A stretch of 53,491 nucleotides of DNA from a virus (IMGVR_UViG_3300048999_000117:1-53491); one strand, 5' to 3'. Positions 21,203-53,482 are shown, counted from the stretch's first letter. Program-made: numbers and translations. The notes: generated by a model from the sequence alone, not told the origin.

Positions 21203-21235
21203 CCGTCCACGCTGACGACCACATGATCAAATGTG

Positions 21236-25203: not shown

Positions 25204-25210
25204 GATGACA

Positions 25211-35427: not shown

Positions 35428-36414
35428 ATGTCCTGGTTCAAGGTCGACGACACGGCCCACACCCACCCCAAGCTCCGGGGGGCGGGCACGGCCGCGATCG
35501 GCCTGTGGACCCTCGGCGGCTCCTACGCGGCCCAGTACCTCACCGACGGCACGGTGCACGCCCACTTCGTCAAGACGACAGCCACCGCCCCGCAGCTCGC
35601 GAAGCTCGTCAAGGCCGGCCTGTGGCACCCCGCCGGACACGGCTGCCCACGCTGCCCGCAGCCCGCCGACGGCGACTACGTCATCCACGACTACCTCATC
35701 TACAACCCGCGCCGAACCAAGGTCATCGCCGAGCGGGAACGGGCCGCCGAGAAGAAGCGGAAGCAGCGGTCCGGGGGCGCGGACGACATGGATCCGGATG
35801 TGAACCGGCGCGGAAACGAAGACGATTCGAGCTCGAATCGAGGCCGATTGCATGATGCATCCGAGGGTAAAACGAGCACGATTCGTGACGGAATCTCAGA
35901 CGCAAATCCTGGTCAGAGCGATGTGTCCCCGGTGGACTCCCTCGGGACTCGTGCGCGCGCGGTAACCCGACCCGACCCGTCTGTTCTTCCTACGGAAGAA
36001 CAGACGGAAGAGACAGCTAGCTACGCGAGCGAGACCGCACACATCGGCGACCGCCCCCGCATCCCCACCGCCAGCCAGCCCCTCGTCGAAGCCCTCACCG
36101 CCGGCGGACTCGTCGTCGGCTGGGACCTGAAGCCCGCCGAGTGGTTCCTCGTCGAGGCGCTCATCCGGCGGTGCGGCATCCCCGCCCTCGTCGTCTCCGC
36201 CCGCGGCAGCTGGGAAGGCGCACGCGCCCAGCCCCGCTCGGCCCGCTACTTCCTCCCCGCCTGGCGCGCCCTGCCCGACATCGCGACCGCCACCCTGCCC
36301 GCCGCTGTCGGCGACGTCGTCCCCCTCACCAAGCCGCGCGGCCAGCAGGAGACCGACGACCTGTTCGACCGCGCCATGACACGCGCCCGCTCCCGCACCC
36401 AGGAGTCCTCATGA
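35428..36414 (+). CDS. Phage replication initiator protein
   Basis: MSWFKVDD..H.HPK N-terminus, IHDYL.YNP, low-complexity linker. Confidence 0.75.
   Translation: MSWFKVDDTAHTHPKLRGAGTAAIGLWTLGGSYAAQYLTDGTVHAHFVKTTATAPQLAKLVKAGLWHPAGHGCPRCPQPADGDYVIHDYLIYNPRRTKVIAERERAAEKKRKQRSGGADDMDPDVNRRGNEDDSSSNRGRLHDASEGKTSTIRDGISDANPGQSDVSPVDSLGTRARAVTRPDPSVLPTEEQTEETASYASETAHIGDRPRIPTASQPLVEALTAGGLVVGWDLKPAEWFLVEALIRRCGIPALVVSARGSWEGARAQPRSARYFLPAWRALPDIATATLPAAVGDVVPLTKPRGQQETDDLFDRAMTRARSRTQESS
35823..35896. promoter_or_regulatory. Putative replication origin inside the rep gene
   Basis: 18-bp palindrome CGATTCGAGCTCGAATCG and further CGATT/GAATC copies in a lower-GC linker. Confidence 0.5.
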
Positions 36415-37791: not shown

Positions 37792-38337
37792 ATGGCCGAG
37801 CAGCACGCCCTCTTCGACTCCGAGCCCGCAACCGCACCGCCCACCGTGCTCGGCTCCGCGATCCTGTCCGACTGCGAGCGGTACCGGTACCTCCTCGGCC
37901 GCGAGTGGACGGACGGACCGACCGCCGTGTTCGTGATGCTCAACCCGTCCACCGCCGACGCCCTCCACAACGACCCGACGATCCGCCGCTGCCTGCGCTA
38001 CGCCCGCGACTGGGGTTGCGGCGCTCTCATGGTCGCCAACCTCTACGCCTGGCGCGCCACCGACCCCGCCGAACTCTGGACCGCCGCCGACCCCATAGGC
38101 CCGGAGAACGACGCGCACCTGTACGCCGCTGCCACGATCGCCGCCGAATCGGGCGGCCCGCTCGTCGGCGCATGGGGCGCCAGCGCCAGGCCGGACCGGA
38201 TAGCCGCCGTCCTCGCCCTGCCCGGCATGGACAGGCTGACGGCGCTCGCGGTGACGAAGGCCGGCCAGCCGAAGCATCCGCTGTACCTGAGCGCCGAGCT
38301 GACCCCGCAGCCGTGGGCGCCACCCAAGGAGGCCTGA
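37792..38337 (+). CDS. DUF1643 protein
   Basis: RYRY.L.R.W, VMLNPSTAD...DPTIRRC, NLYAWRATDP, G.PKHPLY. Confidence 0.9.
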   Translation: MAEQHALFDSEPATAPPTVLGSAILSDCERYRYLLGREWTDGPTAVFVMLNPSTADALHNDPTIRRCLRYARDWGCGALMVANLYAWRATDPAELWTAADPIGPENDAHLYAAATIAAESGGPLVGAWGASARPDRIAAVLALPGMDRLTALAVTKAGQPKHPLYLSAELTPQPWAPPKEA

Positions 38338-38340
38338 CCG

Positions 38341-38652
38341 ATGGGCCTTCATCAGGGGGCGCCGATGCCCGCCAGCCTCCGGCACGGTCTGCGCGCTCGC
38401 GCACACCCCGCGCGCTCCGTGCCCTGCCCGCACGAGCCGTGCCACGCCCGCGCACACCAGTCGTGCATCGTCCGCGTCAACGGGCGCGTGCTCGCGCAGC
38501 CGCACGACTCCCGCATCAACGCGTGGGCCCTCGCCATCGCCTGCTGCCCCGACTGCCAGGTCACGCCCGGCACCCCGTGCCACGACGACGGCACCCCGAT
38601 CGCCGAAGTCCACGACCGCCGTGTCCAGGAAGCGAAGGAGACGCTGGCATGA
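38341..38652 (+). CDS. Double zinc-finger protein
   Basis: Two CP..C.....C...H..R units. Confidence 0.7.
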   Translation: MGLHQGAPMPASLRHGLRARAHPARSVPCPHEPCHARAHQSCIVRVNGRVLAQPHDSRINAWALAIACCPDCQVTPGTPCHDDGTPIAEVHDRRVQEAKETLA

Positions 38653-38849
38653 CGCCTCTTGAACGCCTCCTCCAGGAGGCCATACCCGTCCGGCCCGAAC
38701 GGCCCGACGGAACCCACAGCGTGTGGACGAAGCAGGAGCAAGACCGGCACTGGGAGGAACTCGCCGACGCGATCGGCGTACCCGTCCGACCTCGGCCGGC
38801 GCATCCCGCACCGGTCCGCGAGGACGAGGACAGCGAGGCAGCAGCGTGA
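38649..38849 (+). CDS. Hypothetical protein
   Basis: ATGA/GTGA coupling. Confidence 0.6.
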   Translation: MTPLERLLQEAIPVRPERPDGTHSVWTKQEQDRHWEELADAIGVPVRPRPAHPAPVREDEDSEAAA

Positions 38850-39193
38850 CGGGCGGGGGCGGTGTGACTGGAGAGGCCCCGACGTGCATGGCCTGCGGCC
38901 GTCTCCTGCGCGACGAGGAGTCCAAGCGGCTCCGCCTCGGGCCCGTCTGCCGCAGGCGCCTGGCGGGCCTCCTGACGCCCCGCCCCCGCAACAGCCGTAC
39001 AACGCGATCAACCAGCACAACAGCGGATCAACTCACCCTCGACCTCGACGAGTACGACGACGAGGAGCCCGACGAGGACGAGTGGTTCGACAACGACCTC
39101 CGGATCCCGGACCCGGACCTCCGCGGGCAAGGTCTCACCGCCCGTCAGCTCAACACCCTCGCCGACGTACCCCTCACCGGGAGTTACCTGTGA
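38846..39193 (+). CDS. DUF6011-like zinc-finger protein
   Basis: CMACGRLL.D.ES....LGPVC. Confidence 0.7.
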   Translation: MTGGGGVTGEAPTCMACGRLLRDEESKRLRLGPVCRRRLAGLLTPRPRNSRTTRSTSTTADQLTLDLDEYDDEEPDEDEWFDNDLRIPDPDLRGQGLTARQLNTLADVPLTGSYL

Positions 39194-40215
39194 CCGACCA
39201 GATCACTGCCCACGGCCCTGCCGACTGGACGCCTGACCACTACCGCGGCGACGGCCTCCAGCCCTTCGACGTCATCAACGCATTCGGCCTCGACTTCTAC
39301 GAGGGCAACGCGATCAAGTACCTCCTGCGGTGGCGGAAGAAGAACGGCATTGAGGACCTCCGCAAGGCGCGCACCTACGTGCAGGTCCTCATCGACCGCG
39401 CCGAGCAGGAGTCCACCCGGACGCTCGACTGGATTGCGCGCGGCACCCGGGACCTGTCCATCCCCGAGCAGACCCCGGCCGCCGACGGGGACGCATGCCT
39501 GACCCACATCAAGGGCGCCTGCGACGGCACCACCCAAGGCTGCGTTCGCCCCACGAGCGACGACACCCTGCGCTTCCTGCGCCGCGAGTCCCTGCTCGTG
39601 CTCCTCACTCGCCTCCAGCGCGGCCGGACGCTCAGCGAGGAGGAAGCGGGCACGCTCCGGCACCACGTCGAGACCGAGATGTGCGAAGCCAACACCGCGC
39701 GGGAGGAGCGCGACGAGTACGCCCGGCGGTGCGGCGAGAGCGACGCCGAGGCGGACATCGCGCAGCACAAGCTGGAGCACGCCCGAGCGATCGCTCATCG
39801 TCTCGCTGCCCACGCGGTCGGCTTCCATGACGTGCTTGACGAGAGCGACCACGGTCCGTGGGGCAAGACGGTCGGCGCGGACATCGCCGACCTGGTAGCC
39901 GCCCTCGACGGCACCGAGCAACCCACCACGGAGACGGTCCCGTACACCCAACTGCGGGCCGCCTACGAGGAGTCATGGCAGCTCATCGAGATGCAGAAGG
40001 AGTTCATCGGCAAGCTGCGCCGCCTGATCATGACCGCGATCACCGACCGCGAGGACCGCCGCGTCCAGGCCGAGTCCTGCGTCCACTGCGGCCGGGACCA
40101 CATGAACGAGCTGTACGAGGCGATCATCGCGGCCGACAAGGAGTACGCCGAGGCGTTCCCGGCAACCGCCGAAGGACCCGCGCGCCCCGGGCGACTGCCC
40201 GAGACGGGGGCCTGA
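39190..40215 (+). CDS. DUF3310-domain protein with mosaic C-terminal extension
   Basis: PDHY....QPFDVI....F.EGNAIKYL.R..KKNG.EDL.KA..Y. Confidence 0.8.
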   Translation: MTDQITAHGPADWTPDHYRGDGLQPFDVINAFGLDFYEGNAIKYLLRWRKKNGIEDLRKARTYVQVLIDRAEQESTRTLDWIARGTRDLSIPEQTPAADGDACLTHIKGACDGTTQGCVRPTSDDTLRFLRRESLLVLLTRLQRGRTLSEEEAGTLRHHVETEMCEANTAREERDEYARRCGESDAEADIAQHKLEHARAIAHRLAAHAVGFHDVLDESDHGPWGKTVGADIADLVAALDGTEQPTTETVPYTQLRAAYEESWQLIEMQKEFIGKLRRLIMTAITDREDRRVQAESCVHCGRDHMNELYEAIIAADKEYAEAFPATAEGPARPGRLPETGA

Positions 40216-40217
40216 CG

Positions 40218-40520
40218 ATGACGGCGCACCCGATCCCCGAGAACGGCCACTGCTGGTGGCTGGTGAGCGGCAAGGAACGGCGGCTGCACGCCGTCGCTGG
40301 CCAGCGCATCAGCCCGGCCGCCATGCGTTCGGCGATCGACGAGTGCCGACTGCTCCCCGCCCGAGCCGTCTGCGGGCTGCGCCGCCGGTGGTGGATGCCC
40401 GGCCTCTTCAGCCGCCTCGGCCGCCGCCGCTGCGTCCCCTGCTGCCGTGCCCTCGCCATCCCGCCCGGTTGTGGCACCCCCGCCAACGAGACCGACCTCC
40501 AGAAGGACCAGGCCGCATGA
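40218..40520 (+). CDS. Cys-rich hypothetical protein
   Basis: RLHAV...AVCG...MPG..SRL...RC..CC. Confidence 0.6.
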   Translation: MTAHPIPENGHCWWLVSGKERRLHAVAGQRISPAAMRSAIDECRLLPARAVCGLRRRWWMPGLFSRLGRRRCVPCCRALAIPPGCGTPANETDLQKDQAA

Positions 40521-40873
40521 CTGACCAGTCGTTGCCCGCCGCCGAGTGGGGCGTCGTCGTCGACGAGGTCCTCCTCAACAGCCTCGGCACCACCGCGGGC
40601 GCCTGGTGGGCCGAGCAAGCCGCGCACTTCCACCGCGCCGGAAAGCTGCGTCACCTCGTCGCGCTGCCGATCGGAGGTATCACCGAGATCGGGCCGCTCC
40701 CCCGAGATGACGCCGAGTTCGCGCGGGACCACCTCATCGAGAACGGCGTCCACCCGCGAGCCGTGACCGCCCGCCGCTGGTCCGCGCAGCCCCATATGCC
40801 GAAGTGCCGCAGGGCCAAGCCCTGCCGCCTGTGCGCGCCGGCCTCCGCCGAGCCGCAACAGTCCGTCGCCTGA
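40517..40873 (+). CDS. Hypothetical protein
   Basis: ATGA coupling, AGGA RBS. Confidence 0.65.
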   Translation: MTDQSLPAAEWGVVVDEVLLNSLGTTAGAWWAEQAAHFHRAGKLRHLVALPIGGITEIGPLPRDDAEFARDHLIENGVHPRAVTARRWSAQPHMPKCRRAKPCRLCAPASAEPQQSVA

Positions 40874-40903
40874 CCCACCCCGCACGCCCGCAAGGAGCCC
40901 GCC

Positions 40904-41590
40904 GTGAACGACGCCGCCCGCACCTGGCCCTGCGCCGCCGCGACCTGCCAGCGCACCCTCCGCGACTACGAACTCGACGGAGAACAAACCATCTGCACAC
41001 CTTGCGTCTCCGCCATCCGCACCTGGCTGCACGAGATCCCCCTCCAGCTCGTCGTCATCGGCGGCAGCCGCCAGCGCGAGACCGTCGGAGCCGTCGGCGG
41101 CAGCGGCACCCGCACCCCGCCTCTGCCCGGCCGCGAGGACGTCCTCAACCTCGTCGGCCCCTCGGCTTGGACCGCCGTCCGTGACGAGCACGGCGACCAG
41201 CACGGGCCCGTGCCCATCGTGGGAGTCCTCACCGGCTGGGTCCGGCTCGTCGGTGAGGAACGCACCTGGAACGGGCCCGCGATCGTCACCCCGGAGGCGC
41301 TCGCCCTGTGGCTCGGGCGGGACCGCGTCCTCGACTGGGTGTGCCGGCGCCCGTGGGCGGGTGAGTACCGCGACGAGTTGCACGCGCTGATGCGCACCAT
41401 CCGCAGCGTCACCCGCCTCCGGCCGCAGCGTCGGCCCGTCCCGCAGCCCTGCCCCCGCTGCGACTCGCTCACCCTCGTCGAGACCGACCACGAGATCTAC
41501 ATCGACTGCGGCACCTGCGAGAACCGGTTCACCCGCGAGGAGTTGAAGCTCGCCGCGCGCATCGCGACTGCGGCCATGGACGCAGCATGA
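40904..41590 (+). CDS. Zinc-finger protein at the end of the early region (candidate late-gene regulator)
   Basis: N- and C-terminal CxxC clusters; AGGAG RBS; function inferred from position only. Confidence 0.6.
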   Translation: MNDAARTWPCAAATCQRTLRDYELDGEQTICTPCVSAIRTWLHEIPLQLVVIGGSRQRETVGAVGGSGTRTPPLPGREDVLNLVGPSAWTAVRDEHGDQHGPVPIVGVLTGWVRLVGEERTWNGPAIVTPEALALWLGRDRVLDWVCRRPWAGEYRDELHALMRTIRSVTRLRPQRRPVPQPCPRCDSLTLVETDHEIYIDCGTCENRFTREELKLAARIATAAMDAA

Positions 41591-41591
41591 T

Positions 41592-41618
41592 GCGGCCCCC
41601 GCCACAGGCGGGGGCCGT
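41592..41618. terminator. Bidirectional terminator at the left border of the conjugation module
   Basis: GCGGCCCCCGCC-ACA-GGCGGGGGCCGT between convergent genes. Confidence 0.75.
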
Positions 41619-41798
41619 CTACTCGGTGCCGCCCTCGGGGGGCCTGTCTGGTAGTTCGTCCGTCTCGTGTACAAGCCAGCGGAGGAAGTCGCGGATCGCC
41701 GCGCCTCGGTTCCGTGGTCCGACTGCCTGCCCGGCCTTGTCCCACAGCTCTTTCTCGACGCGGACGGTCTGGCGGGGCGTCTTCTCAACGTTCGGCAT
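41619..41798 (-). CDS. 59-aa ribbon-helix-helix (Kor/Arc/CopG-like) repressor; missing from the ORF track
   Basis: MPNVEKTPRQTVRVEKELWDKAGQAVGPRNRGAAIRDFLRWLVHE...; GGAG RBS; divergent from the spd-tra operon. Confidence 0.8.
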   Translation of the reverse strand: MPNVEKTPRQTVRVEKELWDKAGQAVGPRNRGAAIRDFLRWLVHETDELPDRPPEGGTE

Positions 41799-41812
41799 CG
41801 GCGCTCCAGTTC

Positions 41813-41881
41813 GTCATGACACCGTGAGGTTACCCATTGCGGTGTCATGACACCAGGGTCTAGGGTGGGTGTCATGACACC
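41813..41881. promoter_or_regulatory. Promoter TTGCGG-N18-TAGGGT with palindromic GGTGTCATGACACC operators
   Basis: Perfect palindromes at 41841-41854 and 41868-41881, partial copy at 41813-41823; -35 at 41837, -10 at 41861. Confidence 0.85.
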
Positions 41882-41982
41882 GGGCCCCAGGGCCCGACAA
41901 CAGAAGACAGCCCATGCCCGGGATTCCCGTCCCAGGCATGGGCCTAACCGAACCTTCCTGATCAGACCAGGAGGCATCAGCT

Positions 41983-42336
41983 GTGGCTGATCATTCCGCG
42001 CGCCCCGACGCGCCCGCAAGTTCCCCGACCATCGCCGAGCTGCTCCGCCTCTGCGCGGAGGACTACGCCAGCACCGCACACCTGCGCCACCCCAGCGAAC
42101 ACACGGCCCCGGAACGCCCCTGCCCCGCCACGTTCCCCACCGACCCGACGCCCTGCCGCGGCCCGATCGCCGTCACCGTCCTCGACACCGAGAACGCCGG
42201 CGCCGACGGCTGCGAGTACCACGCCGCCCGCCTCCTCGCCTCGCTCAACGGCGGACGCGTCCACGCCCGGCCGGACGCCCCCGACGGCGCCGCCCTCCGC
42301 GTCTTCAAGGCCGCCGCCGGCGGTGAGCGCCAGTGA
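41983..42336 (+). CDS. Hypothetical plasmid-type protein with Cys/His motif
   Basis: AGGAGG RBS; CPA....DPTPC.G.......GCE.HAARLLASL. Confidence 0.7.
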   Translation: MADHSARPDAPASSPTIAELLRLCAEDYASTAHLRHPSEHTAPERPCPATFPTDPTPCRGPIAVTVLDTENAGADGCEYHAARLLASLNGGRVHARPDAPDGAALRVFKAAAGGERQ

Positions 42337-43196
42337 GCCGCACCCGCCGCGTCCTGGCCAAGCTGACCGCACCCTTCCGCACCAAGGCCCCCGCCGTCGG
42401 CCGTCGCTCGGCCGCCCCGCTGTGGGTCCGCGGACTCACAGCCGGCGGACGCCCCATCGTCCTCGGAGTCGCCCTCCTCATGTGCGCACCCGGCGAGTAC
42501 CACCTCGCCGAGACCGCCGGATGGAACGACCCCTTCACCTACGGCATGCCGGTCGTCCTCTCCGCCTACGCGGGCATCGCCGCCGCCGTCGCCTCCACCC
42601 GCCGCCGAGGCGACCGGGGCCGCTGGTCCGCGATCATCGGCGCCTGCCTCGCCCTCGGCCTCGCCATGGCCGCCCAGGTCGTCAGCCACCTCATCACCAC
42701 CGGGCACGTCATCGCCGACCAGCCCATCCTGATCGCCGTCACCAGCCTCGTCCCGCCCGCCGTCGTCGGTCACCTCCTACACCTCGCGGCCAGCCCGCCG
42801 GACGCACACCAGGACGCACAGGACACCCAGGACGCGACCGCGTCCACCCCCGTCCCGAGCGTCCCGGCTATGCGGGACGTGGTCCCGCCCGATGCCCGGC
42901 TGCTGCCGCTCGTCGCCCGCCCGGTGCCAGTCGTAACCCTCGAACGCGAGGACCGACAGGACGACGACAGGACGCGCGAACTCCCGCCCGGGACGGGCCA
43001 GGACGCCGAGGACGGGCCGCCGCCCGAGCCGCCCCTCATGACGTCCGCCCAGGTCGCCGAGCGGTACGGCATCGCGATGTCCACCGTCCGCTCCTGGGTC
43101 GACACAGGACGCCTCACCGTCCACAGCAAGGACGGCCGGAACCGGAGCTTCTTCCACCCGGACGCCCTTCCCGAGCTGGAGGCGGTGCGCTCATGA
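42333..43196 (+). CDS. SpdB-like spread protein: 4 TM segments, linker, C-terminal HTH
   Basis: Four hydrophobic segments; MTSAQVAERYGIAMSTVRSWV HTH. Confidence 0.75.
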   Translation: MSRTRRVLAKLTAPFRTKAPAVGRRSAAPLWVRGLTAGGRPIVLGVALLMCAPGEYHLAETAGWNDPFTYGMPVVLSAYAGIAAAVASTRRRGDRGRWSAIIGACLALGLAMAAQVVSHLITTGHVIADQPILIAVTSLVPPAVVGHLLHLAASPPDAHQDAQDTQDATASTPVPSVPAMRDVVPPDARLLPLVARPVPVVTLEREDRQDDDRTRELPPGTGQDAEDGPPPEPPLMTSAQVAERYGIAMSTVRSWVDTGRLTVHSKDGRNRSFFHPDALPELEAVRS

Positions 43197-43369
43197 CCCG
43201 CCTCGCCTTCGGCGCCGTCCTCGGACTCCTCGTCGCCTGCCCGACTCTGCTCGCCGTCGTCCTGGCCGTCGTCGCTGCGGTCGTCTCGCAGCCCGCCGTC
43301 CTCGCCTTCGCGGCCGGCGTCCTGCTCTGGCCGCGCCTCGCTCGTCGCGTCCGGGGGTGGACCCGATGA
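43193..43369 (+). CDS. Small hydrophobic Spd-like protein
   Basis: 58 aa, almost entirely hydrophobic; ATGA coupling at both ends. Confidence 0.7.
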   Translation: MTRLAFGAVLGLLVACPTLLAVVLAVVAAVVSQPAVLAFAAGVLLWPRLARRVRGWTR

Positions 43370-43683
43370 GCGACGCCCTGCGAAAGGCGGAGGACGCCGT
43401 CCGGGACGCCACCGCCAACACCGACGTCGTCCGCATCGTCGCCGCCGTCCTCGCCACCCAGCAGGCCGCCCAGCAGCAGGCGCCCGCCCCGCCGTCCGCG
43501 CCGACGACAGACCGACGCCCTGTCGGCCTGTACATCGCCGGCGGCATCGGCGCCGCGGTCGCTCTCGCCTTCCTGGCCATGGCCGCCGCGGTCCTCGCGG
43601 TCGCGGTCGCCGTCGGCGCGATCTGCGCCACCGCCTGCGTGCTCGTGCTCCGCAGCATGTGGCGCGACTTCACCAATCGCTGA
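43366..43683 (+). CDS. SpdD-like membrane protein
   Basis: Pro/Gln linker, then a long hydrophobic hairpin ending VLRSMW. Confidence 0.7.
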   Translation: MSDALRKAEDAVRDATANTDVVRIVAAVLATQQAAQQQAPAPPSAPTTDRRPVGLYIAGGIGAAVALAFLAMAAAVLAVAVAVGAICATACVLVLRSMWRDFTNR

Positions 43684-43697
43684 CCAGGGGGAACCCC

Positions 43698-43934
43698 ATG
43701 AACAAGACCACCCAAGAGCAGTACGTCCAGCTTGCGTGGAGCGCCACCGCCAAGGCCGAGCAGCTGGCCCGCGACGCCGAACGGGCCGCCCGCAACGAGG
43801 ACTTGCGGCACAAGGTCGAGCCGCTCGCCGCCGCTGGCCGCCTGTGGGCCGAGGTCGCGCAGGCCTACAGCTCCATCGCCGCCGTGCTGCCCGAGCCGCT
43901 GCCCGAACTGCCCACCGCCGGAACGGAGTACTGA
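43698..43934 (+). CDS. Small helical protein in the transfer operon
   Basis: AGGGGG RBS; Ala-rich helices. Confidence 0.65.
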   Translation: MNKTTQEQYVQLAWSATAKAEQLARDAERAARNEDLRHKVEPLAAAGRLWAEVAQAYSSIAAVLPEPLPELPTAGTEY

Positions 43935-43936
43935 CC

Positions 43937-44272
43937 ATGCGTAGCTCCTACACGCGCGGCGAGAAGCTGCGCCTGGCGTACCTCGTGGCCAAGGCCGCGA
44001 AACAGTCAATGGCTGGTGACCGCAACGTCGACACCATCGACCCGCGGGTGAAGGCTGCGGCCGACCGCATCGAGGAGCGGGCCGCCGAGCGCGGCAAGAG
44101 CGAGGCCAAGGCGCTAGGCGAGCAGCTGGCGAAAGCCCGCAGCGACGCCGCGACCGCCAAGGCGACCATGCGCGCCAGCCGTGGCCAGGACCGGGCCGCA
44201 GCCCGACGCGAGATGCACGAGCGCGAGGCCGCCGGCCGCCGCCTCGAACGCGAGCTACGCAAGTACCAGTAA
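43937..44272 (+). CDS. DUF6257-like plasmid protein with coiled-coil tail
   Basis: T.GEK..LA..VA..AK...A....D.....DRI...A; GGAG RBS. Confidence 0.6.
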   Translation: MRSSYTRGEKLRLAYLVAKAAKQSMAGDRNVDTIDPRVKAAADRIEERAAERGKSEAKALGEQLAKARSDAATAKATMRASRGQDRAAARREMHEREAAGRRLERELRKYQ

Positions 44273-44356
44273 CAACGCCCGGGGACGGCGTCCACCGCCA
44301 AGCAGACCGCCGTCCCCGGACCCCGGACCGCCCAACAGAACGACCGGAGACCCAGC

Positions 44357-46483
44357 ATGACAGTCGACCTGATCAAGGCGTCACCGGACGCACCCTCGGA
44401 CGCGCAGGACGCTCCGGCCCCTGAGGCGTCCTCGGACCGTCCCGAGGCGTCCCGTCCGCCGCGTCGCATCCGCATCGCCCACCTCCGCCGCGTCGTCGTC
44501 GACATCCGCCAGAACCCCGCCTACCGCCTGGCGGTCCGCCACGGCGCCTACACGTGGGGCGGCATGCGCATCCTGACCCGCCGCGCGTGGGAGGCCCGCA
44601 CCACCGCCACGCACCAGCGGATGATGCGCATCGCCGAGGCCGCGGGCAACGAGGAGATGGTGCAGAAGTGGGAACAGCGCGCCTACGCCTACCGGTTCGC
44701 CCGGCACAAGCGGCGCATGGACCTGCTCCAGCTCGCCATCAACCTGCCCAAGGCCGTGTTCACCACGGTCGTCGCCGGGGCGGGCGTGCTCCTGATGCTG
44801 GGCATCCTCATCGCCTGGCACAACCACGACGTCGCCGACGTCCTCGCGCCGCTCGACGCCGTCATTCAGCTGGTGGCGTGGCTGGGGTTCATCGCCTCCG
44901 TCATCTGGGACCCGCTCCTGTACTCGCTGCCCCTGCTCGCCATGGCCGGCGCCTGGGCCGTCGGCAAGAACCAGAAGGCGGCACCCACCTGGGCCCTGCC
45001 CGCCGACGATGCCGCGCTCGACGTCATCCCGGACGAGAACGCCATCCTGAGAGCCCTCGGCAACCTGGGCCTCTCACCCCTGAACAAGGCGATCAAGGAG
45101 GGCTGGAAGCCGCGCTGGGTACAGCCCACGGTCCGCCTCGGCAACGGGTACCACACACAGGTCCAACTGCCCCTCGGCGTCACCGTCGAGATGGTCAACG
45201 GCAAGAAGAACGTCCTCGCCCACAACCTGCTCCGCAAGCCCGTCGAGACCTGGCCGACCGAGCCGCCCAAGCAGCCCGGCGTCCTCGACCTGTGGGTAGC
45301 CGACCAGGGCTCCCTCAACGGACCCGTACCACCGTGGCCCCTGCTCACGGAGGGCACGACCGACTACTTCAAGGGCGTACCCGTCGCCCTGTCGCAGCGC
45401 GGCGAGCCGATCATCGGCAAGCTCATGGCCGCGAACTGGATCGTCGGCGGCATCATGGGCTCCGGCAAGACGTCCATCGTCGTCTCGCTGCTCCTCGGCG
45501 CGATCCTCGACCCGCTCGTCGAGGCCGAGGTGTACGTCATGGCGACGAACATCGACTACGACCCGCTCAAGCCGCGCCTGAAGGCCCTCGTCAAGGGCGA
45601 CGACCCCGAGCAGCTGAAGGCCGCCCTCGACCGGCTGCGCAGCCTCACCAACGAGGTCACCGAGCGCGGCAAGCTGCTGGAGGAACTCGGCGGCGAGTCG
45701 CCCAAGCTCACCCGTGAACTGGCCCTGAAAGACCCGCGCATGCGGCCCCGGGTCATCGTCTTCGACGAGGTCCACGAGCTGTTCATGAGCAAGGAGTACG
45801 GCAAAGAGGCCGCCGAGCTGGCCATCCGCGTCATGAAGAAGGCCCGCAAGGTCGGCATCACCCTCATCTGGGTCACCGTCTCCCCGACCGCCGACAGCAT
45901 CCCGCGCGACGTCACCCGCAACACCAGCCACCGCGTCGCGTTCGCAGTCGGCGACCAGGTCGCCAACGACGGCCTGCTCGGCTCCGGCAAGTACAAGGCC
46001 GGCATCCGCGCGACCGAACTCGTTCCCGGCCAGGACATCGGCACCGCGGTCACCTACGGCTTCACCAGCAAGCCCTTCGAGGTCATCCGCTCCTACTACG
46101 TCGCCCGCGACCCCGAGAAGGGCATCGACGAGGTCACGCCCGTCGTCGAGCGGGCCATGGGCCTCTACGAGGGCACCGGGCCCGTGGACACACCCACCTT
46201 CGACGTGGCCGACCCGCTCACGGACATCGCGGCCGTCCTCGGCCACGAGCCGCGGATGCGGACACAGGACGTGCTGCGCGGCCTCCAAGACCGCGCCCCG
46301 GTCGCCTACGGCAGCTGGTCGTTCCGCGACCTCAAGAGCGTCCTCGACGACGCCGGCCACGGCGTCTACAAGACGGACGGCGGCAAGATGCACGTCAGCC
46401 TCGACCGCATCCTCGACGCCATCGCCGCCCGCGACGAGGACACCCCGGACGACGAAGACGACGAGGGAGGCACCGAAGACTGA
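44357..46483 (+). CDS. traB: TraB conjugative dsDNA translocase (FtsK/SpoIIIE family)
   Basis: N-terminal TMs, Walker A GIMGSGKT, Walker B VIVFDEVHE, ARKVGI, C-terminal winged-helix-like domain; spd context. Confidence 0.88.
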   Translation: MTVDLIKASPDAPSDAQDAPAPEASSDRPEASRPPRRIRIAHLRRVVVDIRQNPAYRLAVRHGAYTWGGMRILTRRAWEARTTATHQRMMRIAEAAGNEEMVQKWEQRAYAYRFARHKRRMDLLQLAINLPKAVFTTVVAGAGVLLMLGILIAWHNHDVADVLAPLDAVIQLVAWLGFIASVIWDPLLYSLPLLAMAGAWAVGKNQKAAPTWALPADDAALDVIPDENAILRALGNLGLSPLNKAIKEGWKPRWVQPTVRLGNGYHTQVQLPLGVTVEMVNGKKNVLAHNLLRKPVETWPTEPPKQPGVLDLWVADQGSLNGPVPPWPLLTEGTTDYFKGVPVALSQRGEPIIGKLMAANWIVGGIMGSGKTSIVVSLLLGAILDPLVEAEVYVMATNIDYDPLKPRLKALVKGDDPEQLKAALDRLRSLTNEVTERGKLLEELGGESPKLTRELALKDPRMRPRVIVFDEVHELFMSKEYGKEAAELAIRVMKKARKVGITLIWVTVSPTADSIPRDVTRNTSHRVAFAVGDQVANDGLLGSGKYKAGIRATELVPGQDIGTAVTYGFTSKPFEVIRSYYVARDPEKGIDEVTPVVERAMGLYEGTGPVDTPTFDVADPLTDIAAVLGHEPRMRTQDVLRGLQDRAPVAYGSWSFRDLKSVLDDAGHGVYKTDGGKMHVSLDRILDAIAARDEDTPDDEDDEGGTED

Positions 46484-46631
46484 GGGAGTTCTCCCTACCC
46501 GCCTCCCTGCCCTGCATCCCCATGGTTGACCTGGGGAAACAGTGGTTTAGGGAGGCAGGGGAGGCAGACCCACGAGGACGAGGGAAACGGGAAACAGGGA
46601 CTTCAGCATCCCTCGCGCCGCCTCCCTCCCC
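46463..46631. repeat. clt-like cluster of AGGGAGGC-type repeats in both orientations
   Basis: GAGGGAGG 46463, GAGGGAGT 46482, CTCCCT 46491, GCCTCCCTG 46501, TAGGGAGGC 46548, AGGGGAGGC 46557, GAGGGAAAC 46580, GCCTCCCTC 46620. Confidence 0.65.
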
Positions 46632-46656
46632 ACCACGCCCACGAGAGGATGCACAC

Positions 46657-46938
46657 ATGATCAGGCCCGTGTACCGAGTCCAGTGCGACGGCCCCGGCAA
46701 GGAGTGGCTGTCCCTCCCCGACGGCTACGTACCCGGCACAGACCTGCCGGCGGACGCCCTGGTCGCCGCCGACACCGCCGAGAAGGCAGGCAACTGGCCC
46801 GGCGAGCGTGAGGCGAAGCGCGCGGCCATCGGCGCCGGATGGCGCCACCCCATGGACTCCTCGGACTTCAAGGACTGGCTGTGTCCGGCCTGCCAGACAT
46901 CGGTCTCCGCGCAGACCGATGCCGCTACGAGCGGATGA
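46657..46938 (+). CDS. Small zinc-ribbon-like protein
   Basis: GAGGA RBS; V.CDG...A...GW......LCPAC. Confidence 0.65.
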   Translation: MIRPVYRVQCDGPGKEWLSLPDGYVPGTDLPADALVAADTAEKAGNWPGEREAKRAAIGAGWRHPMDSSDFKDWLCPACQTSVSAQTDAATSG

Positions 46939-47079
46939 CCATACGAAGGAAGGGGTGCAATGCCTTCGAAGGCTCAGCAGCTGACCCGGAGTACGCGACC
47001 ATGGGGCCACGGAACCGATCTACGCGCCGCCCGGCCACGTCACCGCCGCACGGATCTGGGACGTCCTCGGCTGTGTTGC

Positions 47080-47172
47080 TGGACACGCGAACGATCACGG
47101 CTGCATACTCTGGTGTCAGCGCCACACGTGCGCCCACACACCACACGAGCCCCCGCCAACGCGGGGGCTTTC
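47080..47172 (+). promoter_or_regulatory. Putative late promoter followed by a terminator-like hairpin
   Basis: TGGACA-N18-CATACT; AGCCCCCGC-CAAC-GCGGGGGCT-TT. Confidence 0.5.
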
Positions 47173-47191
47173 GCCGTTGCAGGGGGTGACC

Positions 47192-47449
47192 ATGGGCCGC
47201 CCCGGAGACCGCGAAGCCGCCCACGGCCGCGAAGACGCCGACGGCACCATCTGGTTCACCGTGGCGGAAGCCGCCGCCTTCACCGGCCGCAACCGGCAGA
47301 CCATCTACAGCTGGGAACGCCGAGGTCACCTAAAGGAACCCCGGCACGACGAGCACGGTCGGCGCATCTACACCCAGGCCCAGATCGCTGCCGCCGAACG
47401 CCTCGCGCGCCACAACGCCGCCGCCACACGCCGCGTCGCCGTCGTTTGA
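47192..47449 (+). CDS. MerR-like HTH protein
   Basis: TVAEAA..TG..RQTIYSWERRG.L......GRRIY. Confidence 0.8.
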   Translation: MGRPGDREAAHGREDADGTIWFTVAEAAAFTGRNRQTIYSWERRGHLKEPRHDEHGRRIYTQAQIAAAERLARHNAAATRRVAVV

Positions 47450-47467
47450 CGACCAGACCGAGGAGCC

Positions 47468-47716
47468 ATGCGCCGCACCCTCACCATCGCCGCGACTACC
47501 GCCGTGCTCCTGCTCGGTCCCGTCGCCTGCAGCAGCAACGACCCCAAGCCCGCGCCGAGCACCACCCGGCCACCGGCAACCACATCGGCCCCGAGCAGCC
47601 CGACGCCCACCACGGCTGCGCCGAGCCCCAGCCCGACCGACCCGCAGGCGAGCCCCACGGCCAGCGACGAGCCCAGCAGCCCACCGTCCAGCCCCCTGGG
47701 CCACGACGGCGCCTGA
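47468..47716 (+). CDS. Small Pro/Ser/Thr-rich lipoprotein
   Basis: MRR, hydrophobic stretch, VAC lipobox-like site. Confidence 0.75.
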   Translation: MRRTLTIAATTAVLLLGPVACSSNDPKPAPSTTRPPATTSAPSSPTPTTAAPSPSPTDPQASPTASDEPSSPPSSPLGHDGA

Positions 47717-47801
47717 CGGTCACAACACGGACACACCGGCCCCGCGCGGCCCCCGCGCGACAGATGATGCCCCCTCAGCGTCAGACGTCCTTGGGGGGAC
47801 C

Positions 47802-48053
47802 ATGAGCGACTACAGAGCCGTCCAGACCGCCGTCCGCGTCGAGAAACTCCGCATCTGGTTCGCCTGGGCCTGCGGGAACTTCATCCTCCTCGCCATCGCC
47901 CTCGCCACCCAGCACGTCCACATCGTCAGCGTCGTCACCCAGGTGCTGCTCCTCGCCGGCTTCCTCGCCCTCACGGTCGCCCTCTTCCGCATGACCGGCG
48001 CCCTCAACCGCAAGGCCGCAGCCGCCCGCAACGAGGTCCTCGGCGACCTGTAG
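47802..48053 (+). CDS. Two-TM membrane protein
   Basis: Two hydrophobic segments. Confidence 0.75.
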   Translation: MSDYRAVQTAVRVEKLRIWFAWACGNFILLAIALATQHVHIVSVVTQVLLLAGFLALTVALFRMTGALNRKAAAARNEVLGDL

Positions 48054-48068
48054 CGCGAGGAGGCGCCC

Positions 48069-48353
48069 GTGGCCGGCAACCCACGCAACGGGCGCCCCTA
48101 CCGCAGGCTGTGCGCCTGGCTCCGCGCCCAACGCCTCCCGTGCGCACGGTGCGGCCACAACATCGGATACGAGCTGGACGCCCGGCACCCGCTGTCCTTC
48201 ACCGTCGACCACGTCATCCCGCTGTCCAAGGGCGGCAACCTCCTCGACCGTGACAACGCCCGCCCGATGCATCGGCGTTGCAACTCGGCCAAGGGCAACC
48301 GCACGCCAGCACTACCGAAGCCAGCACCACATCGCGCCTCACGGCGGTGGTGA
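48069..48353 (+). CDS. Packaging-associated HNH endonuclease
   Basis: CARCG...TVDHVIPLSKGG....N....HRRCNSAKG. Confidence 0.92.
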   Translation: MAGNPRNGRPYRRLCAWLRAQRLPCARCGHNIGYELDARHPLSFTVDHVIPLSKGGNLLDRDNARPMHRRCNSAKGNRTPALPKPAPHRASRRW

Positions 48354-48909: not shown

Positions 48910-49347
48910 GTGCTCTACGTCGTCACCGGGCCGCCGGCCTCCGGCAAGAGCACATGGATCGACGCGCACGCCACCGCCCGCGACATCGTCATCGACCTCG
49001 ACCGCATAACCCGCGCACTCACCGGGCCAGGCGCACCGCAGTGGAACCAGGACCCCACCATCCTGCGCGTCGCTCACCGCGCTCGGTACGCGGCCATGGA
49101 CGAGGCCTTCGAGCTACGCGACACGGTTGACGTCTACCTGATCCACACCATGCCCAGCCCCAAGGCCTTGGCCAAGTACAGGCGCATGGAAGCACGCATC
49201 GTGGTCGTGGACCCCGGACGCGAGGTGACCATGCAGCGCATCGCGGCCATGCGCGACACGGACATGCAGCGGGTCGCCACCCGCTGGTACCGGTCCCGGC
49301 CGGCCGCCGCCCGCGAGCCGATGCCGCAGGCCTCGCGCACTTGGTGA
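48910..49347 (+). CDS. P-loop kinase-like (AAA) protein
   Basis: VVTGPPASGKST Walker A; IVID.D. Confidence 0.8.
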   Translation: MLYVVTGPPASGKSTWIDAHATARDIVIDLDRITRALTGPGAPQWNQDPTILRVAHRARYAAMDEAFELRDTVDVYLIHTMPSPKALAKYRRMEARIVVVDPGREVTMQRIAAMRDTDMQRVATRWYRSRPAAAREPMPQASRTW

Positions 49348-49515: not shown

Positions 49516-49782
49516 ATGGACGTTGCCGACAACATCGCCGCCGAGCTTGGCGCGGATCAGACGTCGCCCGGCATGGCGGCCGTCGCCCGTTCCCTCGCCA
49601 AGGCGATCGACGAATCGGACGCACCGACCGCGAAGGCCGTTGTCGCCGACAAGCTCCGGGCGATCATGGCGGACCTCCGCAGGCTCGCCCCGGTCGAAAT
49701 GAAGGGGGATGCCGTCGATGACATTGCTGAGCAGCGAGAGAAGCGCCGCGCCGCAGCCCGACAGCAGGCCTCCGACGGCTGA
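49516..49782 (+). CDS. terS: Terminase small subunit
   Basis: A..LAKAID...L......D.VDDIA..R..RR; precedes and overlaps terL. Confidence 0.8.
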   Translation: MDVADNIAAELGADQTSPGMAAVARSLAKAIDESDAPTAKAVVADKLRAIMADLRRLAPVEMKGDAVDDIAEQREKRRAAARQQASDG

Positions 49783-51244
49783 CGGCCGCGTGTACGGCTG
49801 GCAGGAACCCCCGATCCAGATCACGCCCCCGGCCGTGTCCAGCGCGGGCCAGGAGGCGATCGACCTCGCCGCGAGTGCCGGGCTGCACCTGGACCCGTGG
49901 CAGCAGCACGTCCTGTGCGTCGGCATGGGTGAGAAGCCGGACGGTAGTTGGGCGTCGTTCGAGGTCGCGGTGAACGTGCCGCGCCAGAACGGCAAGGGCG
50001 GAGTGATCGAAGCCCGCGAGTTGTGGGGCCTGTTCATCGGCGGCGAGGAGCTGATCCTCCACAGCGCGCACGAGTTCAAGACGGCGAAGAACGCGTTCCG
50101 CCGGATCGAGCGCCTGATCCGTAGCACTCCTGACCTGCACAGACGCGTCAAGCGGTACTGGCAGACCACGGGTGAGGAGAGCATCGAGCTGTACTCCGGG
50201 CAGCTGCTGCGGTTCATCGCGAGGAGCAAGGGTTCCGGCCGTGGCTTCACCGGCTGGTGCAACATCATGGACGAGGACATGATCCTCGGCGACAACGAGA
50301 TGGACGCCCTGCTGCCCACCATGGCAGCGGTCCAGGATCCGCAGATCTGGTATCTCGGATCGGCGGGCATCGGCGGTCCGTCCGTACAACTGGGGCGCCT
50401 GCGCCGCCGTGCACTGGCTGCGATCGAGGCTGGCACGTCGGATCCGTCACTTACGTACTTCGAGTGGTCCGTGGACCCGCACGTGGATGAGTGCCCGAAG
50501 GACTGCACCGTGCACGACGATGCGGCCTCCAACGAGGCAGTACTGAAGTCCAACCCCGGCATCGGCTACCGGCTGACGCTGGAGAAAGTCGCCAATGAGC
50601 GGTCCACTCTCAGCAAGGACGGCTACGCCCGCGAGCGCCTCGGGGTCGGTGACTACCCGTCCGACACGGCGGAGACGTGGCAAGTCGTCGGCGAGGACGC
50701 GTGGCGGGCGCTGGCGGCTGCGGAGTCGTCGCCGTCGGACCCAGTGGCGTTCGCGATCGACATGACCCCGGAGCGCTCGCACGCGGCGATCGCCGTGGCG
50801 GGGGACTGGCGGGGCGGCACGCACGTCGAGGTGGTCGACCATCGGCCCGGTACGGGCTGGATCCTCGACCGGGCTGCCGAGCTGCATGAGAAGTGGAAGC
50901 CGCGGTGCTGGGTCGTCGATGCCGGTGGTCCTGCGGGATCGCTCATCGCCGACCTGGAAGAGCGCCTCGGCGTCGAGGTCGTCTCGCCGAAGACACGCGA
51001 AGTCGCCTCGGCCTGCGGCCAGTTCTACGACGCGGTGACCGAGCAGACCCTCAGCCACCTCGATCAGGCGCCCCTCGCGTCCGCGCTGGCGGGCGCACAG
51101 AAGCGCCCACTCGGCGATGCGTGGGCGTGGGCGCGGCGGATCGTCTCGGTGGACATCAGCCCGCTGGTCGCCGCCACGCTCGCCAAGTGGGGGCTCGGCG
51201 CCGAGGTCGAGGACACGGTCGATCCGCTGGACAACATCCTGTGA
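49709..51244 (+). CDS. terL: Terminase large subunit (start may be 49718)
   Basis: LDPWQ, VPRQNGKG Walker A, IMDE Walker B, FAID nuclease motif, DISPLVA. Confidence 0.93.
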   Translation: MPSMTLLSSERSAAPQPDSRPPTADGRVYGWQEPPIQITPPAVSSAGQEAIDLAASAGLHLDPWQQHVLCVGMGEKPDGSWASFEVAVNVPRQNGKGGVIEARELWGLFIGGEELILHSAHEFKTAKNAFRRIERLIRSTPDLHRRVKRYWQTTGEESIELYSGQLLRFIARSKGSGRGFTGWCNIMDEDMILGDNEMDALLPTMAAVQDPQIWYLGSAGIGGPSVQLGRLRRRALAAIEAGTSDPSLTYFEWSVDPHVDECPKDCTVHDDAASNEAVLKSNPGIGYRLTLEKVANERSTLSKDGYARERLGVGDYPSDTAETWQVVGEDAWRALAAAESSPSDPVAFAIDMTPERSHAAIAVAGDWRGGTHVEVVDHRPGTGWILDRAAELHEKWKPRCWVVDAGGPAGSLIADLEERLGVEVVSPKTREVASACGQFYDAVTEQTLSHLDQAPLASALAGAQKRPLGDAWAWARRIVSVDISPLVAATLAKWGLGAEVEDTVDPLDNIL

Positions 51245-51255
51245 GGGAGGCTCCC

Positions 51256-51432
51256 ATGACCAGGGCAAACATGGTCGGCGCCCTGGCGTCAGCGTGCGGG
51301 TGGGTGGCCGCCCGCCTGCCCGGGGCGGCTGGGGCCGTGCTGCTGTCGGCCGCGGCCTGGCAGGTCTACACGCCCGCTGGGATGGCGGTCGCCGGGGCCT
51401 TCTGCCTGTCCGTGGACTGGAGGAAGCGGTGA
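51256..51432 (+). CDS. Small membrane protein before the portal
   Basis: GGGAGG RBS; hydrophobic. Confidence 0.7.
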   Translation: MTRANMVGALASACGWVAARLPGAAGAVLLSAAAWQVYTPAGMAVAGAFCLSVDWRKR

Positions 51433-52580
51433 GCCTCTTCTTCGGACGGCGTGAGCGCCGGGGCCCGTTCCCCGAGCCGCCGATCCCACCGCCGCTTCGG
51501 TCGATGACGTTCGCGCGCGTCAGCCTCGCGCAGACCGAGGCGAGCCTGCAGAAGGTTGCCGTGTGGGCGGCCGTGGACCTGATTGCCTCTCTGGGATCGC
51601 TGCTGCCCATCGACGTCTTCGAGGGCACAGGGGCTGCTCGCCGTGAGCTGCCTACGCCGAAGATCCTGGAGGACCCGTCGGGCGAGGGCTACGGCACTGC
51701 GGACTGGATCTACCAATACCTGATGTCGCTGCTGCTGCGCGGCAACACCAACGGCCGAGTCGGCGACCGGGACCGGCTTGGCAATCCGACGCAGATCGTG
51801 CTGTACCACCCAGACGATGTGCAGGGTTGGCGCGACGATGAGTCGGGGCTGCCGAAGTGGCGGGTGTGCGGCCAGGATGTGCCGGCGGATGAGATGTGGC
51901 ACCAGAGGGCGTACACGATTCCCGGGCGGCTGCTGGGCTTGTCGCCCGTGCGCCACCACGCCACGACGATCGGCCTGGGTATCGCGGCCGAGCGGTTCGG
52001 CCGGCAGTGGTTCGAGGACGGCGCGCACCCCTCGGGGCTGCTGACGAACGAGCAGGCGCTGACTCCGGGCCAGGCCAAGACCGCGAAGGAACGGTTCATG
52101 GCCGCGCTGCGCGGCACACGGGAACCGGTGGTGCTGGGGCAGGGCTGGAAGTTCCAAGCGATCCAGGTCGCTCCGGAAGAGTCGCAGTTCCTGGAGACGC
52201 AGAAGTACACGGCTGCGGAGTGCGCGCGGATCTACGGGCCCGGTGTACCGGAGATCCTCGGCTACGAGACCGGCGGCTCGATGACCTACGCCAACGTCGA
52301 GCAGCGCAGCCTCGACCTGCTGACGTACTCGCTCGACCGGTGGCTGGTGCGTACCGAGCGCATGTTCACCGCGCTCCTGCCCGCCGGCCAGTACGTGAAG
52401 ATCAACCGTGGTGCTCTGGCCCGCACCGACCTGCTGACCAGGTTCAAGGCGCACGCCCTGTCCCTGCAGAACAGGTGGGCGGTACCCAACGAAGTACGCG
52501 ACCTGGAAGACCAGGCGCCGGTGCCCTGGGGCAACGATCCGCTCGTTGAGGCCGCGCCGAAGGTGCGGCTCAGTGAATGA
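51429..52580 (+). CDS. Portal protein, HK97 family
   Basis: LLLRGN, GLSPV, F..GA.PSG.L, QFLET, YANVEQ, NEVR.LE. Confidence 0.93.
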   Translation: MSLFFGRRERRGPFPEPPIPPPLRSMTFARVSLAQTEASLQKVAVWAAVDLIASLGSLLPIDVFEGTGAARRELPTPKILEDPSGEGYGTADWIYQYLMSLLLRGNTNGRVGDRDRLGNPTQIVLYHPDDVQGWRDDESGLPKWRVCGQDVPADEMWHQRAYTIPGRLLGLSPVRHHATTIGLGIAAERFGRQWFEDGAHPSGLLTNEQALTPGQAKTAKERFMAALRGTREPVVLGQGWKFQAIQVAPEESQFLETQKYTAAECARIYGPGVPEILGYETGGSMTYANVEQRSLDLLTYSLDRWLVRTERMFTALLPAGQYVKINRGALARTDLLTRFKAHALSLQNRWAVPNEVRDLEDQAPVPWGNDPLVEAAPKVRLSE

Positions 52581-53356: not shown

Positions 53357-53482
53357 CCACCCGAACGGCACGCGGGCGCGACCCCAACCCATCACCCCAT
53401 GGAGGGAGCGAGCCATGCTCGCCTACCTGCGCAAGCAGATGACAGCCGCGCTCGAAGCCCGGGCCGCGCTGAAGACCGACCT
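53357..53482. repeat. Terminal direct repeat, right copy
   Basis: Identical to 1-126. Confidence 0.95.

Follow-up and report, generated by a model that had tools for sequence, protein, structure and literature searches.

In this study we analysed a 53,491-bp virus contig of the IMG/VR collection (IMGVR_UViG_3300048999_000117:1-53491), hereafter called the window, by which we mean the whole stretch of DNA. The contig is the genome of a temperate siphophage of Streptomyces type, and between its replication genes and its terminase genes it holds a cassette that resembles the DNA-transfer regions of Streptomyces plasmids and of the integrative and conjugative elements of actinomycetes (AICEs). 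This cassette spans 41619-46640 and is made up of a divergent gene for a protein of 59 amino acids (aa), a group of palindromes, six small genes (41983-44272), the traB gene and an array of repeats (Table 1). Three of its gene junctions are 4-bp start/stop overlaps (42333/42336, 43193/43196 and 43366/43369), and the remaining genes are separated by gaps of 14, 2 and 84 nt. The largest gap, directly before traB, holds an inverted repeat that is possibly an attenuator or a processing site. No frameshift or internal stop was seen anywhere in the cassette, in agreement with the first-pass annotation of this DNA.

Table 1. Features of the transfer cassette (upper rows) and of the phage genome around it (lower rows); positions are counted from the first base of the window.
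Feature	Position	Strand	Remarks
Hairpin, perfect 11-bp stem, 3-nt loop	41593-41617		left cassette border, between convergent genes 40904-41590 (+) and 41619-41798 (-)
59-aa candidate repressor	41619-41798	-	open reading frame (ORF) and third-position G+C (GC3); divergent from cassette
GTCATGACACC at three sites, of which two are full 14-bp palindromes (GGTGTCATGACACC)	41813-41881		candidate operators over divergent promoter region
Leader hairpin, 14-15-bp stem	41909-41944		upstream of first cassette gene
117-aa protein	41983-42336	+	no Pfam, PHROG or NCBIfam match
287-aa membrane protein	42333-43196	+	DUF2637-like N-terminal part with hydrophobic segments; C-terminal HTH_17/MerR-type helix-turn-helix (HTH)
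58-aa hydrophobic protein	43193-43369	+	start overlaps preceding stop (ATGA)
105-aa protein, C-terminal hydrophobic stretch	43366-43683	+	start overlaps preceding stop
78-aa soluble protein	43698-43934	+	
111-aa DUF6257 protein	43937-44272	+	directly upstream of traB; DUF6257 E 4.8e-9, 36.3 bits (cut-off 26.2)
Perfect 12-bp inverted repeat, 17-nt loop	44279-44319		in 84-nt gap between DUF6257 gene and traB; read from sequence
TraB, 708-aa membrane-anchored FtsK-like dsDNA translocase, Streptomyces plasmid/AICE type	44357-46483	+	
clt-like array	46465-46640		GGGAGTTCTCCC palindrome right after traB stop, followed at fixed distances by GGGAGG(C) copies, some inverted and some direct
Major capsid protein	59-1429	+	family scans
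Head-tail adaptor and tail genes, including tape measure (6431-10240)	within 59-16560	+	family scans
Endolysin	14842-15762	+	family scans
Holin	16252-16560	+	family scans
Regulators	~19-21 and 24.7-25.7 kb		family scans
Divergent tyrosine-integrase-like protein, 446 aa	22958-24298	-	lower-G+C regulatory region
RecE/RecT-like genes	30890-32610		family scans
Replication initiator	35428-36414		family scans
HNH	48069-48353	+	family scans; 3' of cassette
P-loop/terminase-small-like	48910-49347	+	family scans
TerL	49709-51244	+	family scans
Portal	51117-52580	+	family scans
Prohead protease	52596-53267	+	family scans

The largest protein of the cassette, TraB, had been described as an FtsK/SpoIIIE ATPase with membrane segments and intact Walker motifs, and these features are present. 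Walker A (GSGKTS, residues ~368-373) and Walker B (VIVFDE, ~466-471) can be read by eye from the sequence, and two or three hydrophobic segments lie at residues ~130-205, with Kyte-Doolittle windows of at least 1.6 at ~130-156 and 161-188, from which we assigned a putative N-terminal membrane anchor by hydropathy only. Residues 215-708 match the Pfam model FtsK_SpoIIIE with E 3e-5, at its 24-bit cut-off, and 43 of 66 family members match this model; the profile matches in the PDB are to FtsK (2IUS, 2IUU, 2IUT). Among plasmids we found matches in 43 records, 37 of them from Streptomyces and pSG5 included, the best being the 13.5-kb plasmid NZ_CP108827. Among 50,697 phage records (E 1e-5) the sole match was weak, covering 28%, and came from a Staphylococcus jumbo phage. 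The family as a whole is large and comprises 2,295 cluster representatives when the threshold is E 0.001 and 333 when it is 1e-30. A 66-row TraB profile was aligned by hhalign with the TraB of pSG5 at 100% probability (E 3.5e-40, 416 columns, up to residue 705 of 738) and with the Tra protein of pIJ101 at 98.1% (E 6.7e-14).

An AlphaFold2 (AF2) model of residues 215-708, built from the 66-row alignment, has a mean predicted local distance difference test score (pLDDT) of 92 and resembles the FtsK motor (Foldseek E 1e-17; VIA Z 30 over 348 residues, root-mean-square deviation 3.7); the structural matches that come after FtsK are the conjugation coupling protein TcpA and then EccC. A first fold computed from 13 close relatives was poor (pLDDT 53) and has been superseded by this model. 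Profile and phylogeny had been named beforehand as the means to decide the family of the ATPase. In a quick maximum-likelihood tree of 20 rows, with the frameshifted copy of locus L013 excluded and a careful search unfinished, the two chromosomal FtsK rows are set apart on a long branch of their own (support 100), the TraB of the window groups in one clade with those of AICEs, small islands and phages, and the Tra of pIJ101 joins the FtsK side on a very long branch. Taken together, plasmid matches, profile and tree support the assignment of the ATPase to the plasmid/AICE TraB family and not to chromosomal FtsK.

The cluster of repeats that had been noticed at the 3' end of traB is present and conserved in relatives. 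Five of the 21 GGGAGGC copies of the window fall within the 162 bp from 46465 to 46626; the count over the whole window is at chance, and it is the clustering that is non-random. The offsets of GGGAGG/CCTCCC from the traB stop are near-fixed in 13 of 14 registered related loci (-19, +18, +31, +66, +75, +124, +138 and +142), and of a further 14 places, 13 have their densest GGGAGG cluster right against the traB stop. When 13 arrays were aligned, the GGGAGTTCTCCC palindrome, GCCTCC, GACCTG and the paired AGGGAGG and TCCCTCCC blocks proved invariant or nearly so, to be compared with 66% identity at traB third codon positions and only 41% over the next 165 nt. Loci with this shared geometry include AICEs and the 13.5-kb plasmid NZ_CP108827, whose TraB is 31% identical and where the same arrangement is displaced further downstream; the plasmid pCM32 (TraB 33% identical) has different repeats at this position. 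By its presence, position and conservation the cluster is thus supported as a clt-like cis array tied to traB. In the part of PMC3583192 that was accessible, the clt of pWTY27 is given as 16 bp inside traA together with the next 159 bp, bound by TraA, and the 8-bp repeats of pSVH1 as being read by a winged helix at the C-terminus of TraB. The array of the window matches these published loci in its position and its repeats.

The array lies ~2.3-3 kb upstream of the terminase-small-like gene and TerL, and TraB has a weak match to the PHROG family of terminase large subunits (E 1.4e-8). Both would suit an accessory role in packaging or replication, in which the array is a pac-like site and the ATPase a helper motor for the downstream terminase genes. 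We consider such a role very improbable. The weak PHROG match is explained by the shared P-loop, TraB has membrane segments, and the phage possesses its own TerL and HNH. Moreover, the same traB and array, in alleles 80-82% identical to that of the window, occur in the AICE-type loci L005 and L006 (where prim-pol, DUF927, NUDIX and integrase genes were seen, the ORFs scanned within 10 kb containing no terminase), and traB and array are found on the 13.5-kb plasmid as well, where no terminase was seen.

How regularly the cassette is linked to phage genes was examined in two sets of loci. A pattern search yielded one viral and 13 genome loci with TraBs 66-87% identical, and in four of these 14 traB stands upstream of phage head or packaging genes: in L010, L012 and L014 genes for HNH, TerL, portal, protease and capsid come after it within 1-2 kb, and in L004 those that come after it are for a portal of SPP1 type and for another capsid. 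We also sampled 301 genomes of Streptomyces species, of which 14 contain a total of 16 places at E 1e-100 or better. We analysed 15 of these places, leaving out the contig fragment in genome G035, and found TerL, portal and capsid genes downstream of traB in four (L010, L046, L047 and L051). Combined, 7 of the 28 distinct places other than the window have terminase, portal and capsid genes just downstream of a traB of this clade, and their head modules are of at least three kinds; a survey for such synteny had been suggested in the first-pass annotation. The remaining places are of two sorts, namely AICE-like ones with prim-pol, DUF927, NUDIX, RepSA and integrase genes, and small integrative elements with a tape-measure-like protein, a capsid, a ClpP-type protease or a small terminase. 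Because of this recurrence the join of cassette and phage is not chimeric; the linkage is real and recurrent. Logan contigs of the probable source run X1, which bridge both cassette borders, span 38038-43916 and 46450-48197 at an even depth of 10-14 with 0 mismatches; they represent the same data in another assembly, not an independent sample. Runs X2-X4 gave only short pieces on this stretch, none of which bridges a cassette border. No RNA run was among the sequencing runs listed for this DNA.

The phage-context label changes at least three times on the TraB tree. The TerL of the window is 94% identical to those of L010 and L012, whereas its TraB is only 74% and 68% identical to theirs, and it shares 82% identity with the TraBs of the AICE L005 and the small island L015. 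The cassette is modular and has moved between element types. From such mobility one could argue that an AICE once inserted into the phage or recombined with it, and that the tra block is carried along without use; the changes of context on the tree and the divergence of TraB among phages with nearly the same TerL would both fit. We nevertheless hold this to be quite unlikely. Scans of the ORFs with Pfam and PHROG revealed phage genes on both sides of the cassette and no AICE integrase, Rep or att remnant at its flanks. It had been stated earlier that the phage is not simply a co-integrated plasmid, and indeed no RepSA, relaxase or second integrase was found in the window: the Relaxase model matched nothing there, and neither did the RepSA model, in a search whose own controls were also blank, the same Pfam model matching L009 by hmmscan with E 2.5e-152. 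Each of the seven genes is intact, the motif blocks in the non-coding DNA do not vary, and the ratio of nonsynonymous to synonymous substitution rates (dN/dS) of traB is well under 1, with values of 0.15-0.54 in 11 pairs and of 0.19 between two phage-borne copies. A passenger would also not be expected to sit at the same place upstream of terminase genes in seven other places with at least three head modules. On the evidence of these substitution ratios and reading frames we regard the cassette as intact and under selection.

The sole clearly decayed copy among the 28 places is the traB of L013 (10001-11408), which is split by a frameshift and whose match lacks the N-terminal third. Five small integrative elements (L007:5679-13804, L015:12208-21694, L044:2072-12826, L054:8240-18243 and L017:13028-20009) combine a TraB of this clade with a long tape-measure-like protein that is at most 47% identical to that of the window. 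They variously carry a capsid, a ClpP-type protease, a small terminase, a primase and an integrase, with no full tail or lysis set in the stretch examined, and may be phage satellites or cut-down prophages that retained the DNA pump. In the genome G254 two TraB copies, L047 and L049, lie 45 kb apart on one contig; one is placed upstream of a full head module of a phage, and the other belongs to an element that has an integrase and no such module.

It might also be that the pump serves other DNA than the phage's own genome, or acts against rivals: it could mobilise the host chromosome or small elements bearing the same repeats, or interfere, through exclusion or hijacking, with AICEs and plasmids that share its specificity. 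The same GGGAGG(C) array and TraBs of 66-87% identity are indeed found, within one genus, on AICE-like elements and on small integrative elements bearing a capsid or a tape-measure-like protein, and G254 holds a phage-borne and an AICE-like copy 45 kb apart. The allele of the window is closer to AICE alleles than to those of sibling phages, which makes cross-recognition plausible. What speaks against such a use, and leads us to rate it as unlikely, is the array in cis on the phage DNA right after traB, the very arrangement that makes a replicon its own substrate in pWTY27 and pSVH1 (PMC3583192, in its accessible part).

The left part of the cassette has the look of a control region. At its left border a terminator had been annotated; the perfect hairpin that lies there is followed by no T-run and is absent from terminator predictions, and hence we describe it as a hairpin only. 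The divergent 59-aa ORF is likewise present as annotated, but its claimed ribbon-helix-helix fold is without a family match in Pfam, PHROG or NCBIfam; from its sequence pattern alone, read by eye, the protein remains a candidate for a ribbon-helix-helix-like repressor. The palindromes over the divergent promoter region were borne out: GTCATGACACC matches five times in the window, always within 41813-41881, and 0 of 100 shuffles reach five. An orthologue of the 59-aa protein with 85% identity is encoded in L044, where it is also divergent from a traB cassette and lies beside the same palindromes, of which two identical copies are retained. With the Kor systems of plasmids the cassette has in common the divergent position of the regulator and the candidate operators.

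Every small gene of the cassette has homologues adjoining traB in some other elements. Those of the 117-aa protein, with 49-75% identity, lie upstream of traB in L007, L009, L017, L045 and L052, those of the 58-aa protein adjoin it in L008, L043 and L051, those of the 105-aa protein in 15 other loci, and those of the 78-aa protein, with 38-85% identity, in L004, L008, L010, L011, L042 and L054. Hydropathy indicates hydrophobic stretches in the 287-, 58- and 105-aa products. The 287-aa protein matches HTH_17 with E 1e-4, under the cut-off, and a protein atlas places it with DUF2637+HTH_17 clusters; its orthologue in L012 (55% identity) matches DUF2637 with E 4e-16. In titles and abstracts we found no literature concerning DUF2637.

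What the window holds is a temperate phage's genome, complete and not integrated. CheckV gives a completeness of 100%, and the family scans (Pfam, PHROG) found the full siphophage gene set, with capsid, portal, protease, TerL, tape measure, endolysin, holin, RecE/RecT and replication initiator, so that the earlier description as a complete siphophage holds. Bases 1-126 recur exactly at 53357-53482, corresponding to a unit length of 53,356 bp with the final 9 bases differing, and the junction of the contig ends is collinear with the related prophages L012 and L010. The contig is therefore self-closing, that is, a closed circle or a concatemer, despite its linear class in the collection, and since the integrase-like gene lies internally in it, this is the non-integrated form. 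The 446-aa integrase-like protein has as its sole Pfam match a weak one to Phage_int_SAM_3 (E 0.014); it scores 0.99 to integrase-named clusters in the protein atlas, and recombinase-like motifs can be read by eye. It gave no match among phage records or in the PDB, and used as query it found no orthologue beside the related prophages. The general family scans showed no ParA or ParB among the scanned ORFs of the window, no dedicated search being made for them; ARAGORN predicted no tRNA, and a megablast of the window against phage records matched only the endolysin stretch of phage Dryad.

The G+C content is 63-75% across the window with its minimum at 21-25 kb; the stretch 21000-25300, at 63-65% compared with 68-75% elsewhere, holds the integrase-like gene and divergent HTH regulators. 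Between the lysis and integration genes lies a trio (18068-20482) of a DUF6879 gene (18068-19072), an HTH_31+DUF5753 gene (19088-19927) and a gene for a PHROG 38395 protein (20006-20482). Relatives of the HTH_31/DUF5753 protein adjoin traB in six small integrative elements (L016, L017, L042, L043, L054 and L055), accompanied by DUF6879 in L017 and by PHROG 38395 in L054. The phage therefore has more than the tra cassette in common with such elements. From the array towards the packaging genes, the stretch 46657-47716 encodes a protein of 93 aa in which there is a CxxC pair, an excisionase-like one of 90 aa and MerR/HTH_17 type (47177-47449) and a lipoprotein-like one of 82 aa that is rich in Pro/Ser/Thr (47468-47716), and it varies among related phages.

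Our interpretation builds on what the analysis gave directly, namely the family to which TraB belongs, a cassette that is intact and under selection, a cis array that is conserved and a linkage to virion genes in several phage lineages. We think it probable, at roughly 60%, that the phage carries this Streptomyces plasmid/AICE-type cassette as a native module and that TraB pumps phage DNA between hyphae. By this reading the small divergent repressor would sit on the three palindromic operators and hold the operon off. On derepression the membrane-anchored TraB motor would form a ring, its C-terminal DNA-binding domain would dock on the GGGAGG(C) array 3' of its own gene on circular phage DNA, and this double-stranded DNA might then be pumped through the envelope of the hypha, or through cross-walls, to neighbouring compartments or to a mycelium in contact with it. 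The DUF2637-HTH protein, the two tiny hydrophobic proteins and the DUF6257 protein would assist, in the role that Spd proteins have for plasmids, and the incoming circle would integrate or replicate. For DNA binding, ring formation, regulation and the transfer of a 53-kb phage DNA we infer this course by analogy with pSVH1, pIJ101 and pWTY27.

Several points weigh against transfer of the phage genome by TraB. Characterised TraB substrates are small (pIJ101 8.8 kb, pSG5 12.2 kb), and a 53-kb phage able to kill the recipient is a different case. The DNA comes from a bulk soil metagenome. Residues 620-695 of the TraB model form a helix-strand-helix-helix-hairpin-helix unit (pLDDT mostly 79-96), and the alignment with pSG5 TraB extends through it; the unit fits the winged helix described for pSVH1 TraB, in predicted topology only. 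In the array of the window six of the eight usual hexamer positions are occupied, +31 and +124 lacking. The 59-aa protein matches neither GntR nor any other family, while the regulators annotated at the Kor position on pIJ101, pSG5 and NZ_CP108827 are GntR-type, and among the 28 other places it recurs only in L044, plus a weak match in L011. The small genes had been called a largely coupled run of spd-like genes. The coupling stands, by virtue of the three overlaps, but the label spd-like lacks support from sequence: BLASTP of the 287-aa protein, the one covered by the comparison with named Spd proteins, against the SpdB of pIJ101, the SpdB2 of pSG5 and the SpdB of NZ_CP108827 gave E values of 3.1-6.6, i.e. 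no similarity; for the named Spd proteins Pfam offers no family that could serve in a comparison, and tblastn against plasmids gave no match at E 1e-3. The likeness of the two groups lies in small size, membrane segments and a place before traB, with no sequence relationship found.

If the cassette works as proposed, a temperate phage could spread to further hyphae and strains through DNA pumping of the mating type in addition to infecting them. Receptor-based resistance would then be bypassed, and estimates of host range and gene flow in Streptomyces would change. More generally, a single TraB-clt cassette is in circulation among AICEs, small islands with a capsid or a tape measure and full phages of at least three kinds, which bears on the relations of these element classes. 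We tentatively suggest, as an idea with slightly less than even chances, that a recurrent class of integrating Streptomyces siphophages are dual-mode replicons, which exchange TraB-clt cassettes with AICEs and with small islands that carry a capsid, and by means of these cassettes hand on the phage circle, as naked double-stranded DNA, from one hyphal compartment or mycelium to another. If this were true, lysogeny would gain a receptor-independent route, and the line between prophage and conjugative element would be blurred. Since the near relatives are prophages in cultured strains, the transfer hypothesis is directly testable, and the interest of the cassette comes mainly from its being common enough, and near enough to cultured strains, for such tests.

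AICEs of the pSAM2/SLP1 class have, like the window, a tyrosine-integrase-like gene and a single Tra translocase. They measure 9-24 kb, and we know of no AICE with capsid, tail or lysis genes. The phage falls outside this class by its 53.4 kb, by its capsid, portal, tail and lysis genes and by the RepSA that was not found. As far as the available text of an AICE review (PMC2440964) and a survey (PMC3218068) goes, the terms phage, capsid and terminase lead to no element with virion genes. The Streptomyces plasmids with TraB and clt (pSG5, NC_008792; NZ_CP108827; for pSVH1 TraB the accessible part of PMC3583192) share with the window a membrane-anchored FtsK-like motor with a C-terminal extension, repeats at the 3' end of traB, small membrane proteins before traB in one operon and a divergent regulator. 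In NZ_CP108827, annotated in the AICE-like order GntR, DUF6284, spdB, ..., DUF6257, FtsK/SpoIIIE, prim-pol, DUF3631, HTH, integrase, the succession of DUF6257, traB and array is the same as in the window. Unlike in these plasmids, the genome around the TraB of the window measures 53 kb and has full modules for the virion, for lysis and for recombination, the regulator has 59 aa and is not GntR, the small proteins are without detectable relation to SpdB/SpdB2, and no RepSA-type replicase was found.

A phage with a conjugal transfer locus, pZL12, is already known, so the novelty implied in the first-pass annotation was overrated; the pump of pZL12 is only distantly related. The original report of pZL12 or phage ZL12 is said to be that of Zhong et al. 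(2010, J Bacteriol 192:3747). We used its GenBank record GQ919031, which annotates pZL12.71c as FtsK/SpoIIIE-like, and the accessible parts of the citing papers PMC3583192, PMC4487206 and PMC7157519, the first of which refers to a Streptomyces plasmid-phage with a conjugal transfer locus. The virulent Streptomyces phages Jaresh, AndoPrime and Geonosis also encode FtsK/SpoIIIE-like proteins, which in the available text of PMC13587820 and PMC11536984 are discussed for development or replication and not for transfer; in the phage-record search (E 1e-5) they are not close to the TraB of the window. Literature on conjugative phages, prophages and phage-ICEs (phages combined with integrative and conjugative elements) gave, in titles and abstracts, streptococcal and other cases only, and mostly at that same level no description was found of an integrating phage with an AICE-type TraB and clt. 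The protein pZL12.71c is only distant kin of the TraB of the window, aligning by hhalign with 93% probability (E 3e-7, 268 columns) and falling below tblastn E 1e-5. As far as the accessible sources describe it, pZL12 is a 90-kb extrachromosomal prophage with ParA/ParB, whereas in the phage of the window an integrase-like gene is present, and TraB, accompanied by its array, is of the AICE type.

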